The notes: generated by a model from the sequence alone, not told the origin. Shown: positions 1,120 to 6,924, counted from the stretch's first letter. The stretch is 6,924 nt of DNA from a virus (IMGVR_UViG_2541047432_000023), one strand, 5' to 3'. Translations and numbers: made by a program.

Positions 1120-1148
1120 AGTATATGGCTTTTAATCCAGTTTTGCAA
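1120..1148 (-). promoter_or_regulatory. candidate sigma70 promoter overlapping the 3' end of the Q-like gene (PR'-like late promoter)
   Basis: Minus strand: -35 TTGCAA (1143-1148), 17-nt spacer, -10 TATACT (1120-1125). With the terminator at 1058-1089 this predicts a short (about 50 nt) terminated leader, analogous in layout to lambda PR'/6S RNA/tR'. Hexamers identified by eye only. Confidence 0.3.
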
Positions 1149-1821
1149 TATTTTGCTGTAAAAATGCTGCCTTTTGTTTTGAACGTGTTCTCGTCACAAG
1201 CAATAAAGCATCACTATCAAGCTGTAGAAAAATGTGCTTCATTGCAACCCAGCGTTCAGTAAATGTCTCGGACCAGTTTTTTGTTGTCACTCCCACCAAT
1301 GATGCCAGTGTCTGGTATTCATAGGCCTCACGCCCTGCAAGTTCGCTCTTCACATCCTGTGCAGCCAGCCAGATTAACGTCTTCAGGCGATCCAGTGTCT
1401 TACCTGCAATTTTTCTGTTACTTAACAAATCTTTAAACTCGCTCCATGCCCATTGCGTTATGGTGACCTGATGCCCCCATCGAACGCTTTCGCTGTAACA
1501 CCAAAGCAACCATGCTTTCTGATGTTCATCGAGAGACAAAACCGCGCGGCGCCATGAAGAGGTTGAGAATTCAACCGGGCTGACCAAAGCAATGGATGAA
1601 CCTTTTGCGTACGACTGCTTACCGGAAGTCGGCGTATTATCCAGCGTAATCATCTTGCCAGTTACCACATCCAGAATGCGCGGCTTCTTTCGTTTGTATG
1701 TACCAGTATCAAATTGTGCATGCTCCAGCCAGGCTTCAAGCTGTCCTTTCGTTGCTCCGCTCAAATCAGCGGTAGCCACAATGAGTTGCTCGCGGACATA
1801 CTGTAAATATTGGGTATTCAT
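1132..1821 (-). CDS. putative late-gene antitermination protein (Q-like, non-lambda-Q type)
   Basis: ORF track, 229 aa. The ATG at 1821 overlaps the ylcG stop (ATGA). It sits directly after rusA-ylcG, where lambdoid phages carry Q, and a promoter-plus-terminator pair lies just downstream. The protein has a single Cys, so it cannot carry the Cys-rich zinc motif of lambda Q. Family assignment is by position and recall, not a search. Confidence 0.55.
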   Translation of the reverse strand: MNTQYLQYVREQLIVATADLSGATKGQLEAWLEHAQFDTGTYKRKKPRILDVVTGKMITLDNTPTSGKQSYAKGSSIALVSPVEFSTSSWRRAVLSLDEHQKAWLLWCYSESVRWGHQVTITQWAWSEFKDLLSNRKIAGKTLDRLKTLIWLAAQDVKSELAGREAYEYQTLASLVGVTTKNWSETFTERWVAMKHIFLQLDSDALLLVTRTRSKQKAAFLQQNIAKLD

Positions 1822-1958
1822 GCGGCAGCTCCTTTCAGTGTTTTGGCGTAATTCTTCAGTATCCGGTAATCGGTCAAAACAGAACCAGGAAAACGATATA
1901 AGCGCAGGCGCATCCAGCGGTGGCGAAGACGTTCTGCCATATAAGACTCAAACATCAT
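1818..1958 (-). CDS. ylcG: small YlcG-like phage protein (46 aa)
   Basis: Hand translation of the minus strand gives [46 protein letters not shown]. It is below the ORF-track size cutoff. Its start overlaps the rusA stop (ATGA) and its stop overlaps the Q-like start (ATGA). It resembles the DLP12 YlcG I recall from E. coli K-12. The N-terminal start could instead be the ATG at 1940. Confidence 0.6.
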
Positions 1959-2317
1959 TCATTCCCCAGTTCGGTGATGGTCAGCTCCAGCTTCCCACCT
2001 TTGGTAACGGGCATCTTCACAACACGGTAATCAACGACCTGAGCATCATCCAGCCAGAAACCTGCTTTGGTGAGTGCGTCAAAAGCGGCTTTTTGCAGAT
2101 TATCCAGGTCACGGCGACGGCGATCCGGCATGTGGCACTCAATACGGATTTTCACTGGCATAGCCAGGCCGATATCCAGCATGGAGCCTTTGATGATTCG
2201 GGCGACGTTATCACGGTATGCCTGCCCTTCTGCGCTGATGTGCGTGCGCCCGCGATTATGCCGGTAGTAGCGATTATTGCTCGGAGGCCAGGGTAATGTG
2301 ATGCTGTAGGTATTCAC
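1955..2317 (-). CDS. rusA: crossover junction endodeoxyribonuclease RusA (Holliday junction resolvase)
   Basis: ORF track, 120 aa ([24 protein letters not shown]...[41 protein letters not shown]...). This is near-identical to my recollection of E. coli RusA. GTG start at 2317 overlapping the ybcO stop (GTGA). Confidence 0.93.
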
Positions 2318-2604
2318 GCCTTAATAACCCCCTCTTTCAGCCAGATAACCTGTGTTCTCGCCATACCTTCCAGCGCGCATTCTTTTGCATATGCAGCATC
2401 GACAAAATGTGTGCGGCGGTCGATTTCGTCGTGGCAGGCAGAACATGCAATGGTGGCAATCAAGTCTGGCGGTTTGGTACCGGTGCCGCACAATCCAGTC
2501 AGCCGGATATGTGCCAGTACAGACGTTTCAGGGTTGCCATTACATACGCCAGGGATTCTTACTTGGCATTCCCGACTACGCGCTGCTTTTCTCAAATCAG
2601 CCAT
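2314..2604 (-). CDS. ybcO: YbcO-like Cys/His-rich protein (DUF1364-type putative nuclease)
   Basis: The ORF-track frame 2314..2643 is trimmed to the internal ATG at 2604 ([26 protein letters not shown]...CSACHDEID...), giving 96 aa. That ATG is preceded by GGAGGA and overlaps the ninE stop (ATGGCTGA). Multiple Cys/His residues suggest a metal site. Confidence 0.8.
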
Positions 2605-2767
2605 GATTCCTCCTTGCTGCCAGTCGCAACCATTTTTTATCAACCAGGCTGGCGGTATATCCGAGCAGTGTTGGTATTTCGGATGGCTTCAGCTCAGGTT
2701 TACGCTTACGACGATTTGGTACTTTGTAGATGTGTCCGTTCATGACACGAATAAGCGGTGTAGCCAT
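2597..2767 (-). CDS. ninE: NinE family protein (56 aa)
   Basis: Hand translation of the minus strand gives [56 protein letters not shown]. It is below the ORF-track cutoff. Its ATG overlaps the ybcN stop (TAATG) and its stop overlaps the ybcO start. Matches the NinE of DLP12/lambda nin region as I recall it. Confidence 0.75.
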   Translation of the reverse strand: MATPLIRVMNGHIYKVPNRRKRKPELKPSEIPTLLGYTASLVDKKWLRLAARRNHG

Positions 2768-3222
2768 TACGCCTCCTGCTTGTCACGCAGCAGCTGGAAC
2801 TCGCAGCTCTGTGGAATAGTCAGGTGGCAGCCAATATTCATCGCCCAGGCTTCAACCTTACACAGGAAGACATACATCTCTCCGGTACCAAGATCGGAGG
2901 TATGGCGTAACGACTGGATAGTAGTGATTTCGCCGGTTACGACATCAACCAGGTCCTTGGTTTCATAACCGAGGTATGTGTGTTTGAGAGCATCTTTTAC
3001 CCATGCTGAAGTAGCGAACGATTTCCCCCTGCTGATGAGGTATTCACTGATTTCGCTGTACCACATGTGGCTGAGTGCATTCTGGGAAAGACTGCGTCTC
3101 TCGCGCCACGGTTTAAGCACCATGCGAAAGCATTTGCCGTCTTCCAGATAAGTCTGGATCTGCTGACCGACAGCGGTGAAGTTACCGCGATGTAATTTGA
3201 TGCCATCTTGTGGGAGGTTCAC
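2767..3222 (-). CDS. ybcN: YbcN / NinB-like protein (DNA base-flipping protein family)
   Basis: ORF track, 151 aa ([15 protein letters not shown]...[16 protein letters not shown]...). Matches my recollection of E. coli DLP12 YbcN. GTG start at 3222 preceded by GGAGGTG. Confidence 0.85.
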
Positions 3223-3312
3223 GCTTCACCTCCGCAGAGATCAAACGCTGGATGCAAGACATCGCAGGTGCATTTCTGCATCTGTGACAAGGTAAGGAGT
3301 TCAGATTGTGGT

Positions 3313-3336
3313 CGCATTTAAGTCCCCTTAAATGCG
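3313..3336. repeat. perfect 10-bp inverted repeat (CGCATTTAAG-tccc-CTTAAATGCG), stem-loop B
   Basis: Read directly from the sequence. Arms at 3313-3322 and 3327-3336 are exact reverse complements with a 4-nt loop. No flanking U-tract. Confidence 0.6.
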
Positions 3337-3341
3337 CAGAA

Positions 3342-3370
3342 GTCACCGGAGTTGTTCAAGCTCCGGTGAC
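3342..3370 (-). terminator. perfect 10-bp GC-rich inverted repeat (GTCACCGGAG-9 nt-CTCCGGTGAC), stem-loop A; candidate tR2-like terminator or operator
   Basis: Arms at 3342-3351 and 3361-3370 are exact reverse complements. On the minus-strand RNA the hairpin is followed by UUCUGCGCAUUU, only a partial U-tract. It lies between the island and ybcN, where lambda carries tR2 (position from memory). Confidence 0.3.
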
Positions 3371-3412
3371 ATTATTATGGAAGGTTGATACTAAAAAATC
3401 AAAAATTGAATA

Positions 3413-3604
3413 TCATTGGCGATAGTCTAGCTTGTGATATCCACAAGCTACTTCAATGAAGCGACGAGTAACATTTTGTGTCATCCATGTTTTTTCAGTT
3501 AAGTGCCACACCCAGTTCAAAATTTGCTGATGTGTTGAACATGTACTAAGCGGGATGTTGTATTCATAAGCAACATTGATTCCGCAAAATCGGTGTCGTG
3601 TCAT
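3413..3604 (-). CDS. hypothetical small protein (63 aa), doubtful
   Basis: ORF track only (MTRHRFCGINVAYEYNIPLSTCSTHQQILNWVWHLTEK...). No convincing Shine-Dalgarno upstream of the ATG at 3604 and no recognised family. It occupies the gap between ybcK and the tandem hairpins. Confidence 0.2.
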   Translation of the reverse strand: MTRHRFCGINVAYEYNIPLSTCSTHQQILNWVWHLTEKTWMTQNVTRRFIEVACGYHKLDYRQ

Positions 3605-3723
3605 GACCGATTCACGTTGACCTGCGCCCTGTTGAGTGCCTGGGGATATTCTTGCTCGATAGTTAATATCATAGTAGTTACTTTACTTTCATACCATAGC
3701 ACGGTTGAAAAAGTGATTATTAC

Positions 3724-5250
3724 TCAAAAATAAACCTCACCATCAACCATATATTTGAGAGCACTTATCGCCTGCTGGGCGGATATTACTTTCATTAAAG
3801 GATAGTGTTTAAAAACAATGCCATTCATAAAATAGATATCACAGGTTTTATTATCCGTATTAATTATGATTTTTTCGAATATTTTATAGGCAAGTGTACG
3901 GCATAACTCTCGTCCATTTTTACTGGTTAAGTCAATAGCATAAAAATCACTGAATGAATTTACACCTTTACTCTTCAAAGTTTTCAATGATACCAAAGCT
4001 CTTCGTAATTCCTTATCTAATAGTCTTATTTTCTCTGCTATAGCGGTAACTTCAGGCGCGACAGACAATGCAACGATTAAATTATTAATTTTCATCTGAA
4101 GCTCAATAATTTTTAACTCTAAAGTTTCATTAGCATCTTTCTTGTTTTCAACTGGTTGAATTTTGCTACAATTAAAAAGCAATTCATTAATGATATTATA
4201 ATCAACCAAATCTCTCTTTATTGATGGCCTGTCACATCGATGTAATCTTCTCATCGGACAAACATAATAGCCATGCAAACTTCCAGATACCGCATGAACA
4301 ATCATGGTATTACCACAAGCCTCACACTTCATAACTGTTCGAAGTAGATTTATTAGCATAGGATTCTTGCTACTATTGCTAATACCAAAAGGTGCCAACC
4401 GAATTTCCTGTACAGCGTAAAACAAATCATCTGATATGACTCTGGGATAATAGCCAGCGATTTCACTTATCCCTTTCCCTCTTGCACGATATGAAGGTAC
4501 GCATATACCTATCAGAGCTTTATTCGCTAATAATTTTTCAATTACAGAAGGCCCCCATGCACTTTCTTTTCCTGAGAAATTCTTTACAGCATGATCATTT
4601 AAATACTTGGCTATTGCATTCAATGAGCGCCTTTCCATCCTGAGTTTAAAAATTAGCTCAATAGTTTTCACCCTGTCGGGGTCTGGAACAAAAGCCGTTC
4701 TTTTGTCATCTAAGGAGAGCCATCTCGGACAAGACGCCGTCATAATCGTACCTGATTCCAGTGCATCCTGCCGTTTTTTCTTCCATGATAATTTAACCCG
4801 ACTTGACTTTATCTCGCTTTCTTCATTTGCCCTTTGTGCTATAAGTATGGCTTTTATTAATGAATATGGCTCATTCAAAGAGTCAATATTATAGACTGTA
4901 TTGTCGCAAAGAGTTATAACATCAATACCGTGATTCAAAATCAATTTCAGACGTTCAATCGCTTCACCGACTTTTTCTCTTGAAAGTCTGTCCAGACTTT
5001 CAACTAACAATGTAGTTCCTGGCAATATATAACCATGCTCTATAGCATCTAAAAATTCCGAAAAAGCTCCTGATTGTGCATGCTTTCCTTTGAATGCACT
5101 TAATCCTAAATCTTCATATGTTATGGTATCAAGATAATAATCACTATTTACCTTTAACCATTCAGCAATAAGTCTTCTCTGTCGGTTTAATGAGTCGCCA
5201 GACATCTGACCTGGTGATGAAAATCGCATATATGCTATGGCTTTTTTCAT
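3724..5250 (-). CDS. ybcK: large serine recombinase (resolvase/invertase catalytic domain + recombinase domain + zinc ribbon), YbcK-like
   Basis: ORF track, 508 aa. N-terminal serine-recombinase motifs: AIAYMRFSSPGQ (catalytic Ser region), SLNRQ and ESLDRLSRE. Cys-rich zinc ribbon further on (CEACGNTMIVHAVSGSLHGYYVCPMRRLHRCD). Coiled-coil-like C-terminal region. SD AGGTG 6 nt before the ATG at 5250. Strongly AT-rich. Resembles DLP12 YbcK as I recall it. Confidence 0.85.
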   Translation of the reverse strand: MKKAIAYMRFSSPGQMSGDSLNRQRRLIAEWLKVNSDYYLDTITYEDLGLSAFKGKHAQSGAFSEFLDAIEHGYILPGTTLLVESLDRLSREKVGEAIERLKLILNHGIDVITLCDNTVYNIDSLNEPYSLIKAILIAQRANEESEIKSSRVKLSWKKKRQDALESGTIMTASCPRWLSLDDKRTAFVPDPDRVKTIELIFKLRMERRSLNAIAKYLNDHAVKNFSGKESAWGPSVIEKLLANKALIGICVPSYRARGKGISEIAGYYPRVISDDLFYAVQEIRLAPFGISNSSKNPMLINLLRTVMKCEACGNTMIVHAVSGSLHGYYVCPMRRLHRCDRPSIKRDLVDYNIINELLFNCSKIQPVENKKDANETLELKIIELQMKINNLIVALSVAPEVTAIAEKIRLLDKELRRALVSLKTLKSKGVNSFSDFYAIDLTSKNGRELCRTLAYKIFEKIIINTDNKTCDIYFMNGIVFKHYPLMKVISAQQAISALKYMVDGEVYF

Positions 5251-5494
5251 GGTGACACCTGCTAACTTATGCTTTTATAAACCTTAGTGGTGAGATATAA
5301 TTTTTGTTTAATTTTTATTTAAAAAGACAATTACGATCACACTATCTTGAATATACAACAATAATCGTATTGCAATTTGCTTACGCAATAATCTTGAAGG
5401 CACAAAAGAATACACAAAAACTAAAAACATTAACAAAAGCGGCCCATGTAAAGATATGAACCGCCATATTGCAGTCTTTTAAAAGAAATTATTT

Positions 5495-5827
5495 TTAATG
5501 TGGTGTGCTTCGTGACAATAAATTAATAACCAACACACCGGCACAAATCAACATCATGCCTATAACGGCTGGCAGGTCCAGCCGTTGGCCGAAAAACCCC
5601 CATGATAGTAAGCTAATCAGGACAATACCGACTCCTGACCAGATAGCATAAGCAATCCCTGTAGGAATATAAGCCAGCGTCTGAGCTAATAACCAGAATG
5701 ATGCACAATAACAAATAATTGTACCAACAGATGGCCATAACCGTGTAAAACCTTCTGAAAACTTCATTAAGGTTGTACCAATGACCTCTGCAAGTATTGC
5801 ACCACCAAGATAAATATAAGGGTTCAT
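5495..5827 (-). CDS. emrE: small multidrug resistance (SMR) family efflux transporter EmrE
   Basis: The ORF-track frame 5495..5881 contains MNPYIYLGGAILAEVIGTTLMKFSEGFTRLWPSVGTIICYCASFWLLAQTLAYIPTGIAYAIWSGVGIVLISLLSWGFFGQRLDLPAVIGMMLICAGVLVINLLSRSTPH, 110 aa from the internal ATG at 5827. That ATG is preceded by AGGAAAG. Near-identical to my recollection of E. coli EmrE, which is known to lie in the DLP12 prophage. Confidence 0.93.
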   Translation of the reverse strand: MNPYIYLGGAILAEVIGTTLMKFSEGFTRLWPSVGTIICYCASFWLLAQTLAYIPTGIAYAIWSGVGIVLISLLSWGFFGQRLDLPAVIGMMLICAGVLVINLLSRSTPH

Positions 5828-5842
5828 AACATATTCTTTCCT

Positions 5843-5877
5843 GTTCAAACTGGAGAGAATTGTACTACAGTTTGAAC
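5843..5877. promoter_or_regulatory. perfect 10-bp inverted repeat (GTTCAAACTG-15 nt-CAGTTTGAAC) just upstream of emrE; candidate operator or 5'-UTR structure
   Basis: Read directly from the sequence. Arms at 5843-5852 and 5868-5877 are exact reverse complements. It lies in the 67-bp gap between the ren stop and the emrE start. Confidence 0.4.
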
Positions 5878-5894
5878 TCAACTCACCTGTTTCA

Positions 5895-6197
5895 TCATTG
5901 TGTACCCATTGATGTTCTTTTATATACCCTCAATACCCGTTTCATCGCGGCACTCTGGCGACACTCCTTAAAAATCAGATTCGTGCTCACCTTTCCTTCC
6001 CGTTCTTCTCTGGTAGCGAACCGGTAATACACCGTTCGCCAGACCTTACCATCAACGACCAGGATTCCTGCCCGCGCCATTTTAGCCGCAGCCTGATTTA
6101 TGCTGGTTACGGTTGCACCTGTTACCGCGGCAACGTCCTGTGCACAGAAGCTCTTATGCGTCCCCAGGTAATGAATAATTGCCTCTTTGCCCGTCAT
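5895..6197 (-). CDS. ren: Ren protein (lambda Ren homologue, relief from Rex exclusion)
   Basis: ORF track, 100 aa (MTGKEAIIHYLGTHKSFCAQDVAAVTGATVTSINQAAAKMARAGILVVDGKVWRTVYYRFATREEREGK...). Closely matches lambda Ren as I recall it, except the last ~10 residues. The ATG at 6197 overlaps the P stop (ATGA). Confidence 0.85.
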   Translation of the reverse strand: MTGKEAIIHYLGTHKSFCAQDVAAVTGATVTSINQAAAKMARAGILVVDGKVWRTVYYRFATREEREGKVSTNLIFKECRQSAAMKRVLRVYKRTSMGTQ

Positions 6198-6895
6198 ACA
6201 CTTGCTCCTTTCAGTCCGAACTTAGCTTTAATTTCTGCGATCTTCGCCAGAGCCTGTGCACGATTTAGAGGTCTACCGCCCATAACAGGAAGTTGTTTTA
6301 CTGGTTCAGGTATCGTCTCACCACGGTTAATTCGCGCTGTCATACAGGTCAGTTCATCGGCAGCCTTGCGCCGTAATTCCGCGTCAGTCAGCGCATTGGC
6401 CCGCATGTTCTGGTACAAGTTGGTAACCAACCAGTAATGCGCGTTCGATTTCCACGGATAAGACTCTGCATCCGGATACAGGCCACGCTTCCTGCAATAC
6501 TCGTAAACCATATCAACCAGCTCGCTGACGTTTGGCAGTCCGGCGATAACGGATGCTTCTTCCCGGCACCATGCAACAAACTGCCCGGGTGATGGAAGAA
6601 ATGGTCGATTCTGCCGACGGGCTACGCGCATTCCTGCGTTAACCTGTTCCATCGAGGTGATCCCGTTTTCCCGGAAAGCCAGAACCCACTGGCGGCGGAT
6701 TTCGTTCAGTTCGTTCTGGTCACGGTTAGCCAGACTCGCCGGGAAAGTTGCCAGTAACTGGCTGAACACACCGTTGATGATCTGCGCTACCTGCTGTACC
6801 TGCGGCTTTTCGTCGTACTGTTCCGGCATGTTGTTGGCGATCCGACGCATCTGCTCACGGTCAAAGTTAACCATCTGTGCGGCGATGTTTTTCAT
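6194..6895 (-). CDS. P: replication protein P (lambda P, DnaB helicase loader)
   Basis: ORF track, 233 aa (MKNIAAQMVNFDREQMRRIANNMPEQYDEKPQVQQVAQIINGVFSQLLATFPASLANRDQNELNEIRRQWVLAFRENGIT...). Near-identical to lambda P as I recall it, and the same length. Confidence 0.95.
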   Translation of the reverse strand: MKNIAAQMVNFDREQMRRIANNMPEQYDEKPQVQQVAQIINGVFSQLLATFPASLANRDQNELNEIRRQWVLAFRENGITSMEQVNAGMRVARRQNRPFLPSPGQFVAWCREEASVIAGLPNVSELVDMVYEYCRKRGLYPDAESYPWKSNAHYWLVTNLYQNMRANALTDAELRRKAADELTCMTARINRGETIPEPVKQLPVMGGRPLNRAQALAKIAEIKAKFGLKGASV

Positions 6896-6924
6896 AAATC
6901 CACCCCGTAAATCCAGTCAGTGTT
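6892..6924 (-). CDS. O: replication initiator protein O, C-terminal fragment (continues beyond window)
   Basis: The minus-strand frame is open to the window edge and translates ...NTDWIYGVDL-stop. Its TGA overlaps the P start (ATGA). The position upstream of P matches lambdoid O-P organisation. Only about 10 codons are visible. Confidence 0.5.
   Translation of the reverse strand, partial: NTDWIYGVDL

Follow-up and report, generated by a model that had tools for sequence, protein, structure and literature searches.

Why should a lambdoid prophage carry a multidrug efflux gene and a large serine recombinase (LSR) gene side by side in the middle of its early region? This arrangement is found in a viral sequence (IMGVR_UViG_2541047432_000023), of which we analyzed a stretch of 6,924 nucleotides, hereafter the window, with positions counted from its first letter. 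The window corresponds to the early-right part of a lambdoid prophage on the reverse strand, and all of its features described here lie on the minus strand. Genes were assigned from open reading frame (ORF) calls together with the annotation of a 98.9%-identical prophage located at icd in Escherichia coli O157:H7. The resulting order is P, ren, emrE, a ylcJ-like leader ORF, ybcK, a 63-amino-acid ORF (orf63), a ylcH-like ORF, ybcN, ninE, ybcO, rusA, ylcG, a phage-82-type Q gene, and an AT-rich 252-amino-acid membrane ORF (orf252).

A preliminary description of the window proposed that about 2.5 kb of AT-rich DNA, with a small multidrug resistance (SMR) pump and a 508-amino-acid serine recombinase, interrupts the P-ren and nin backbone, and both gene content and composition bear this out. 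The G+C content is 36.1% in the island (3381-5921), compared to 49.5% on its left (1132-3380) and 52.4% on its right (5922-6924). G+C at third codon positions is likewise lower, at 0.29 in ybcK and 0.35 in emrE versus 0.52 to 0.60 in P, ren, ybcN, and rusA, which marks the island as foreign in composition. The island itself is already known, being annotated in E. coli K-12, O157:H7, and a dozen sequenced phages, and the window copy is 100% identical to that of the O157:H7 prophage at icd. We conclude, with a probability of roughly 0.7, that it is a composite moron cluster in a swap-prone gap of phage-82/DLP12-type lambdoid phages and not a cassette mobilized by its recombinase.

Shared breakpoints at the ren/nin junction

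The island had been placed at 3372-5894. Alignment to relatives that lack it retained the island and moved its borders to approximately 3381-3404 and 5921-5930, so that ~9 codons at the end of ren fall within it. On the ren side, homology to phages that carry a different cargo ends at window positions 5922-5931, and on the other side it ends at 3380-3404. The first break lies inside ren: all Ren proteins have the motif ...AAMKRVL in common, after which their tails differ by cargo. In the window's 100-codon ren (5895-6197), codons 1 to ~89 belong to the backbone and the final ~9 to 11 codons (5895 to ~5930) are cargo specific. The second break falls just on the cargo side of a conserved promoter-like block (TTGATT-17-CATAAT, 3374-3402) that is kept with every cargo and forms the left limit of the variable region.

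The DNA between these two points differs widely among phages. At the same junction, PhiR5_1 carries Rha and small ORFs, PhiR30_1 an acyltransferase and a lipoprotein, and IdasGreatGrand many small ORFs, and the P-to-nin stretch of an Atlantibacter lambdoid phage (L018, 3755-5695) encodes a defense-like 646-amino-acid protein with a SIR2_2 domain. Lambda, ev243, and 2B8 have 73 bp only, which in lambda lie between ren and ninB and contain a GC-rich hairpin followed by a T-run. We take this hairpin to be tR2, and its being all that lambda has at the equivalent place agrees with the earlier view that the island sits at the tR2 position. At least six contents thus share breakpoints (the emrE-ybcK island, the Rha set, the acyltransferase/lipoprotein pair, small ORFs, SIR2, and the hairpin only), and cargoes without any recombinase use the same borders. 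Junctions and empty-site or alternative-cargo relatives could therefore be defined as had been proposed; the edges showed no att-like (attachment site-like) core. The SIR2 protein suggests that the junction also collects antiphage genes. The emrE-ybcK island is not a catalogued defense system, since YbcK, EmrE, Ren, the ORFs of the variable slot described below, and orf252 were all without a match in PADLOC.

Three independently assorting modules

The island is made up of three modules that assort independently: emrE, ybcK with its leader, and a variable slot. The joint between the first two is at 5486/5487, and a copy of emrE at the fliE locus breaks at 5487. The ybcK module runs from 5486 to 9 to 66 bp after the stop codon. 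All of 80 E. coli viral contigs have P, ren, emrE, leader, and ybcK in this order, and the slot between ybcK and the conserved block takes at least five forms. Loci with the K-12 tail and ybcL-ybcM number about 30, those with a 107- and a 118-amino-acid ORF 19, and those with an alpha/beta hydrolase about 18; the remaining forms are ORFs of 90 and 105 amino acids (the latter full length in locus L034) and the deletion stump of this window. In the window the slot (3381-3714) is a hypervariable, deletion-scarred remnant with orf63 (3413-3604), which corresponds to the C-terminal 55 residues of the 105-amino-acid phage ORF (phrog_2559/12459, both of unknown function). Four slot forms occur with ybcK alleles whose divergence does not exceed 0.5%. 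We considered whether the slot might be an invertible segment and rejected this, as the hydrolase gene points the same way in each of its 18 to 20 loci.

Linkage was further assessed in 5,426 complete E. coli genomes. ybcK is present in 1,398 of them and the emrE-leader joint in 1,404, and the only context in which ybcK occurs is 236 bp downstream of emrE. In a phage database, emrE and ybcK are carried by the same 12 phages; viable phages with the island include Perceval, 4A7, 1W, 3W, Turner, and PhiR47_2. The emrE module alone (5487 to ~5904/5915) adjoins fliE, at ~91.6% identity, in ~2,300 of the genomes, where emrE is followed directly by ybcL-ybcM and an nmpC-like porin gene. About 20 nt of the ren 3' end are kept beside this copy, implying a decayed DLP12-like prophage of which only cargo genes were retained. 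In these genomes, as in E. coli SYNB1934 of the Nissle lineage (L007 2899-6419, between fliE and yedK), the porin is nmpC/ompC-like and all genes of phage function have been lost, ybcK and ybcN through Q among them.

Signatures of mobility were not apparent in E. coli. Among the ~100 E. coli loci and phage records with flanks examined, no copy of the island lay outside the ren-nin position. Direct repeats flanking ybcK or the island were absent above chance in E. coli, no repeat or dyad was common to the ends of the island or of the modules, and no att-like ends were found. Compared with the K-12 junctions, the "empty" emrE/ybcL site has extra bases, 9% divergence, and only a 5-bp dyad, and calling att sites needs integrated and empty pairs. 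No recombination directionality factor or mobility signature was found in E. coli.

emrE and its flanking signals

EmrE (110 amino acids, 5495-5827) is an SMR multidrug/cation efflux pump: it matches Pfam Multi_Drug_Res (PF00893, 2e-35), is identical at 108 of 110 positions to crystallized EmrE (PDB 3b5d), retains E14 in the motif ...AILAEVIG..., and belongs to phrog_1395, whose category is "moron." Directly 3' of the gene, a terminator scan found an intrinsic-terminator-like hairpin with UUUUGUU (5438-5465; RNA fold z = -3.3), and in K-12 this place is taken by a different hairpin and T-run. Over the ~48 nt that follow emrE (5438-5486), this O157-type window and K-12-type loci (L009 6700-6785) are unrelated in sequence although each has a hairpin and T-run, and this difference marks a further small recombination joint. 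emrE is functional in the defective K-12 prophage, which implies a promoter. From established EmrE biology, a role of the pump as a host fitness factor is plausible.

YbcK and its leader

YbcK (508 amino acids, 3724-5250) has the three domains PF00239 Resolvase (4-161, 5e-19), PF07508 Recombinase (191-284), and PF13408 Zn_ribbon_recom (302-357), and it matches phrog_95 integrase at 7e-120. R9, S11, D87, R88, R91, and four cysteines are invariant in 17 homologues with 42 to 61% identity. The AlphaFold2 model, with a predicted local distance difference test (pLDDT) score of 78, shows long helices at 367-426, where the coiled coils of LSRs lie. A Foldseek search with this model retrieved the full-length serine integrases 9dxd, 9tep (PhiC31), 9iu2 (Bxb1), and 4kis, with E values from 1e-17 to 1e-10; the relation surfaced by fold search only, as phmmer gave no match against PDB sequences. 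Sequence and model together indicate that YbcK is an intact, catalytically complete large serine integrase. The gene is under strong purifying selection, with a dN/dS (ratio of nonsynonymous to synonymous substitution rates) of 0.07 relative to the Perceval allele, and all 52 of the 52 full-length copies are intact. Full-text literature searches on ybcK, on emrE with lambdoid phages or serine recombinases, and on DLP12 with emrE returned no functional study of YbcK.

In several O157:H7 lineages (e.g., NZ_CP038360.1 3087644-3094783), ybcK is split by IS1203, an insertion sequence of the IS3 family, which implies that the recombinase is dispensable for maintaining that prophage.

The AT-rich leader of ybcK occupies 5251-5486 and contains the ylcJ-like ORF (5308-5436), identified by a Pfam YlcJ match. 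In K-12 this leader contains a Rho- and NusG-dependent terminator (PMC4150792). We rejected ylcJ as a partner or directionality factor of YbcK, because the window copy has no ATG and, in other genera, the homologues are not preceded by a ylcJ-like ORF. We likewise rejected as a recombination site a perfect palindrome with 11-bp arms inside ybcK (TTGAAAGTCTG-GA-CAGACTTTCAA, 4980-5003). It encodes the invariant catalytic ESLDRLSR motif, and as homologues keep only 3 to 7 bp of it, it is a by-product of codons that are intrinsically self-complementary.

YbcK relatives in other genera

Homologues of YbcK are confined to the Enterobacterales. Several with 50 to 59% identity occupy the "int" position at prophage ends and adjoin host genes, for example ssrA/smpB in Atlantibacter and lepA in Erwinia, with further cases in Ewingella and Yersinia. 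Nin-region homologues are found in Atlantibacter and in a Pantoea lambdoid prophage, where the protein is 42% identical and its gene has the same position and orientation. Three of these modules are flanked by direct repeats: the 5' end of a DUF1367 gene in the Atlantibacter phage L018 (200 bp at 85%, 7652-7851 versus 10633-10831), the 3' part of P in locus L116 (384 bp at 76%, 9281-9657 versus 12216-12592), and part of a small terminase-like ORF in locus L117 (a 248-bp repeat at 84%, 9273-9519 versus 16149-16394). In L018 and L116, the joint lies 120 to 300 bp from the integrase start. The flanking duplications in Atlantibacter and Pantoea are diverged (76 to 86% identical), and by inspection they show no P/P' half-site symmetry. 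They could reflect an integrating element that repairs its target or, equally, phage-phage recombination.

Two further observations were made at these loci. Downstream of the integrase in Pantoea coffeiphila (L117 11740-13876), there is an exact tandem duplication of ~1.25 kb with two identical 142-amino-acid ORFs, followed by a 298-amino-acid ORF and a C5-methyltransferase/HNH pair. In Ewingella, a 1.9-kb module made up of the integrase and a downstream 67-amino-acid ORF is shared at 88% identity (L017 7993-9932 versus L103/L104 9991-11927) by prophages whose flanks are otherwise unrelated. This small ORF may encode a partner protein, for example a directionality factor.

Inverted repeats and a promoter-like block at the borders

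Perfect 10-bp inverted repeats had been noted at both edges of the island, and all of them exist (3313-3322/3327-3336, 3342-3351/3361-3370, and 5843-5852/5868-5877). They also exceed chance. The window holds four distinct perfect hairpin repeats of at least 10 bp (five overlapping hits counted), compared to 0.29 ± 0.68 in 300 dinucleotide shuffles, of which 0.3% reach the observed count. Their placement is not that of two edges: the left pair is outside the island and the right repeat is 45 to 54 bp inside it, between the ren stop and the emrE ribosome-binding site. The three are mutually unrelated in sequence, and no repeat or core is common to the two edges. An Rfam search of the whole window (evalue mode) was negative, which places neither repeat in a described RNA family.

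The left pair forms tandem stem-loops (3342-3370 and 3313-3336; together 3313-3370) upstream of ylcH-ybcN, which are present with every cargo and also in phage 82. Folded as RNA, they reach -31.6 kcal/mol (z = -6.4). Among their variants, C-to-U changes preserve G-U pairs on the phage-sense strand only, and in the window a different set of bases forms the second stem; the G-U-preserving changes point to an RNA structure and not a DNA site. Just ahead of them is the promoter-like block found by the promoter scan, which in eight loci with five different cargoes has invariant hexamers and a varying spacer. A TTGAT/ATCAA repeat (3385-3402) overlaps the block, and the two strong stem-loops come directly after it. 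The 1996 record of phage 82 (X92588) already annotates a putative -35, a putative -10, and the first left repeat, as a "possible regulator-binding site," upstream of orf33/orf151. Judged from these sequence features, block and stem-loops may together constitute a promoter for the nin region that is followed by an attenuator or terminator; alternatively, they may represent the functional tR2 in phages of the phage 82 type.

The right repeat (5843-5877, from the repeat search and shuffle test) reads GTTCAAACTG-N15-CAGTTTGAAC, has TACAAT in its loop, and abuts the emrE ribosome-binding site. Its RNA fold is not exceptional (-15.4 kcal/mol, z = -0.95). It is retained, with one uncompensated mismatch, in the ybcK-less copy of emrE at fliE. 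This repeat belongs to the emrE leader, where it may act as an operator or as an RNA hairpin. The inverted repeats would therefore be regulatory or RNA-structure elements, the left pair part of the nin backbone and the right one part of the emrE leader, and the proposal that they are remnants of recombination sites did not survive.

Weighing explanations for the island

We favor the view that the gap after ren tolerates insertions, since the nin region is dispensable, as the nin5 deletion shows, and N antitermination would override inserted terminators. Two anchors would let lambdoid phages exchange what lies between them: the body of ren up to codon ~89 on one side, and the promoter-like block with its tandem hairpins before ylcH-ybcN on the other. 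Within the gap, emrE would form a self-contained unit with leader, ribosome-binding site, and intrinsic terminator that could be expressed from an otherwise silent prophage, and its product may serve the host by exporting cationic toxic compounds. ybcK, in turn, is probably silent in lysogens because of its AT-rich leader of ~236 nt, which in K-12 holds the Rho-dependent terminator, and would be read mainly through N-antiterminated transcription from pR. The slot would be a third module that turns over fast, represented here by the stump of the 105-amino-acid ORF. The cluster as a whole would be gained, lost, and reshuffled by recombination between lambdoid genomes, with YbcK not the agent.

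Several points weigh against the moron cluster. What suggests recombination at the anchors is only the coincidence of breakpoints in sequence comparisons, and a consensus promoter scan called no promoter upstream of emrE. That ybcK is under strong purifying selection and is retained by every viable emrE-carrying phage shows that the gene is not inert baggage. Finally, the YbcK modules of other genera are compact and sometimes flanked by partial gene duplications, which hints at recombinase-linked insertion.

The explanation put forward initially was a single cassette of emrE and ybcK, inserted and excised by YbcK, with the inverted repeats as the remains of att sites. An intact, catalytically complete serine integrase within a sharply bordered island of foreign composition, and non-chance repeats within ~50 bp of both borders, are what one might expect of such an element. 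The repeats, however, do not behave as its ends: the left pair lies outside the island, occurs with every other cargo and in phage 82, and varies in the manner of an RNA structure, while the right one lies inside and stays with emrE where ybcK is missing. The ends are unrelated, share no core, and do not look like att half-sites. Other cargoes without a recombinase stop at the same borders, and the supposedly empty relatives hold other DNA or a terminator and a different ren tail. There is also no copy at unrelated loci among the ~100 E. coli loci and phage records examined, and the emrE-ybcK joint is present wherever ybcK occurs in the 5,426 genomes. We regard this cassette as highly improbable. 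A narrower alternative, in which ybcK, its leader, and the 3' slot are (or descend from) a compact, integrase-led hitchhiker of the lambdoid early region with exchangeable cargo and emrE is a mere neighbor, has more in its favor. The ybcK module has tight borders, emrE-ybcL-ybcM without ybcK in the ~2,300 fliE-locus genomes resembles an empty arrangement, and no point of the region varies more than the slot immediately 3' of ybcK. Elsewhere, diverged direct repeats of the interrupted gene flank the module in L018, L116, and L117, with the joint close to the integrase start in the first two, and the Ewingella integrase module recurs in otherwise unrelated prophages; the low dN/dS would also fit. 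In E. coli, however, ybcK has one context and no flanking repeats, and the "empty" emrE/ybcL site, with its extra bases and short dyad, does not allow an att site to be called. The duplications in other genera may equally come from homologous or illegitimate phage recombination, and the decayed prophage at fliE may simply have lost ybcK by deletion. We consider this hitchhiker unlikely. The broader proposal, that YbcK-family integrases define compact cargo-exchanging hitchhikers that enter early genes of lambdoid phages and bring a replacement copy of the interrupted gene end, with E. coli ybcK and its slot a resident, now fixed, beside emrE and the slot a recombinase-associated cargo-capture site instead of a product of ordinary mosaicism, also strikes us as unlikely.

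YbcK could instead be a working accessory recombinase of the phage, either a second integrase for an alternative site or a resolvase of replication products or concatemers, made as a delayed-early product from pR. Its relatives in the "int" position, the Pantoea homologue in the same nin position and orientation, the selection and retention in viable phages, and the full-length serine-integrase fold with its long helices all agree with such a function. Yet the island prophages of O157:H7, of K-12 (DLP12), and of loci L179/L180 each also encode a tyrosine integrase, and island prophages occupy different chromosomal sites (icd, argU). In all 80 viral contigs ybcK lies within the phage map, with no instance at a prophage-host joint. 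Att sites were not identified, and the IS1203 insertions split the gene without obvious loss of the prophage. A working accessory recombinase is thus improbable in our judgment.

Relation to known systems

The closest counterpart is the emrE-ylcJ-ybcK-ybcL-ybcM region of K-12 DLP12, and the pairing named in the preliminary description is indeed the same: DLP12 has the same emrE and ybcK in the same position (ren, island, ylcH-ybcN-ninE-ybcO-rusA), with 3715-6108 of the window 97.8% identical. The two differ in that the DLP12 slot holds ybcL-ybcM and a 300-bp tail whereas the window has the ORF stump, in the sequence of the emrE terminator, and in ren and P, which are intact here but disrupted by IS3 and a deletion in DLP12. 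Lambda and phage 82 share the backbone genes and the site, and the left repeats and promoter-like signals of the window are those annotated in phage 82. Where lambda, ev243, and 2B8 have their 73 bp, the window has 2.5 kb of cargo, the lambda hairpin having been replaced together with the ren tail.

Lambdoid morons include bor, lom, and other promoter-gene-terminator add-ons (PMC3594210). The island resembles them in its deviant G+C content, its presence or absence between collinear phages, the predicted terminator of emrE, and a product of the host-benefit type. It departs from them in carrying a full-length serine integrase without known host benefit, placed behind a Rho-terminated leader and not a free-standing promoter. 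With the LSRs of Tn4451 (TnpX), Tn5397 (TndX), SCCmec (Ccr), PhiC31, Bxb1, and Listeria A118 (LI integrase), YbcK shares the same three domains and the catalytic residues, and its model matches PhiC31, Bxb1, and LI integrase over the full length at a sequence identity of only 14 to 20%. Unlike those elements, ybcK occupies a central position in a phage whose own integrase is of the tyrosine type, with neither att sites nor a mobility signature found in E. coli.

These relationships bear on more than one field. emrE, a clinically discussed efflux gene, travels on viable plaque-forming lambdoid phages and is thus horizontally mobile phage cargo. The ren/nin junction is a delimited exchange point with fixed anchors, which can help in annotating prophages and in finding cargo such as defense genes. 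A serine integrase is maintained under strong purifying selection inside phages that integrate by a tyrosine integrase; if YbcK does act on sites in phage DNA, it would amount to a novel type of mobile module carried by phages and might also supply a new integrase for genome engineering.

Neighboring features of the window

On the right flank, the backbone replication gene P (6194-6895, 52.8% G+C) was identified by ORF call and by the replication protein P annotation in locus L001. On the left, a small ylcH/orf33-like ORF (~3219-3317, by annotation) precedes ybcN (2767-3222, 50.7% G+C), the orf151 of phage 82, which is NinB/Orf-like (phrog_72 NinB/Orf, 6e-51) and is the first gene of the nin-region backbone.

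A second AT-rich patch (37.7% G+C) covers positions 1-1131, downstream of the phage-82-type Q gene. It contains orf252 (205-963), which encodes a multipass membrane protein of phrog_1521 (function unknown), without a Pfam match as well. This patch is another cargo slot, at the place where other lambdoid phages have nmpC or stx, and its counterpart in a record of phage 434 (OL657226.1), likewise downstream of Q, is 97.7% identical.

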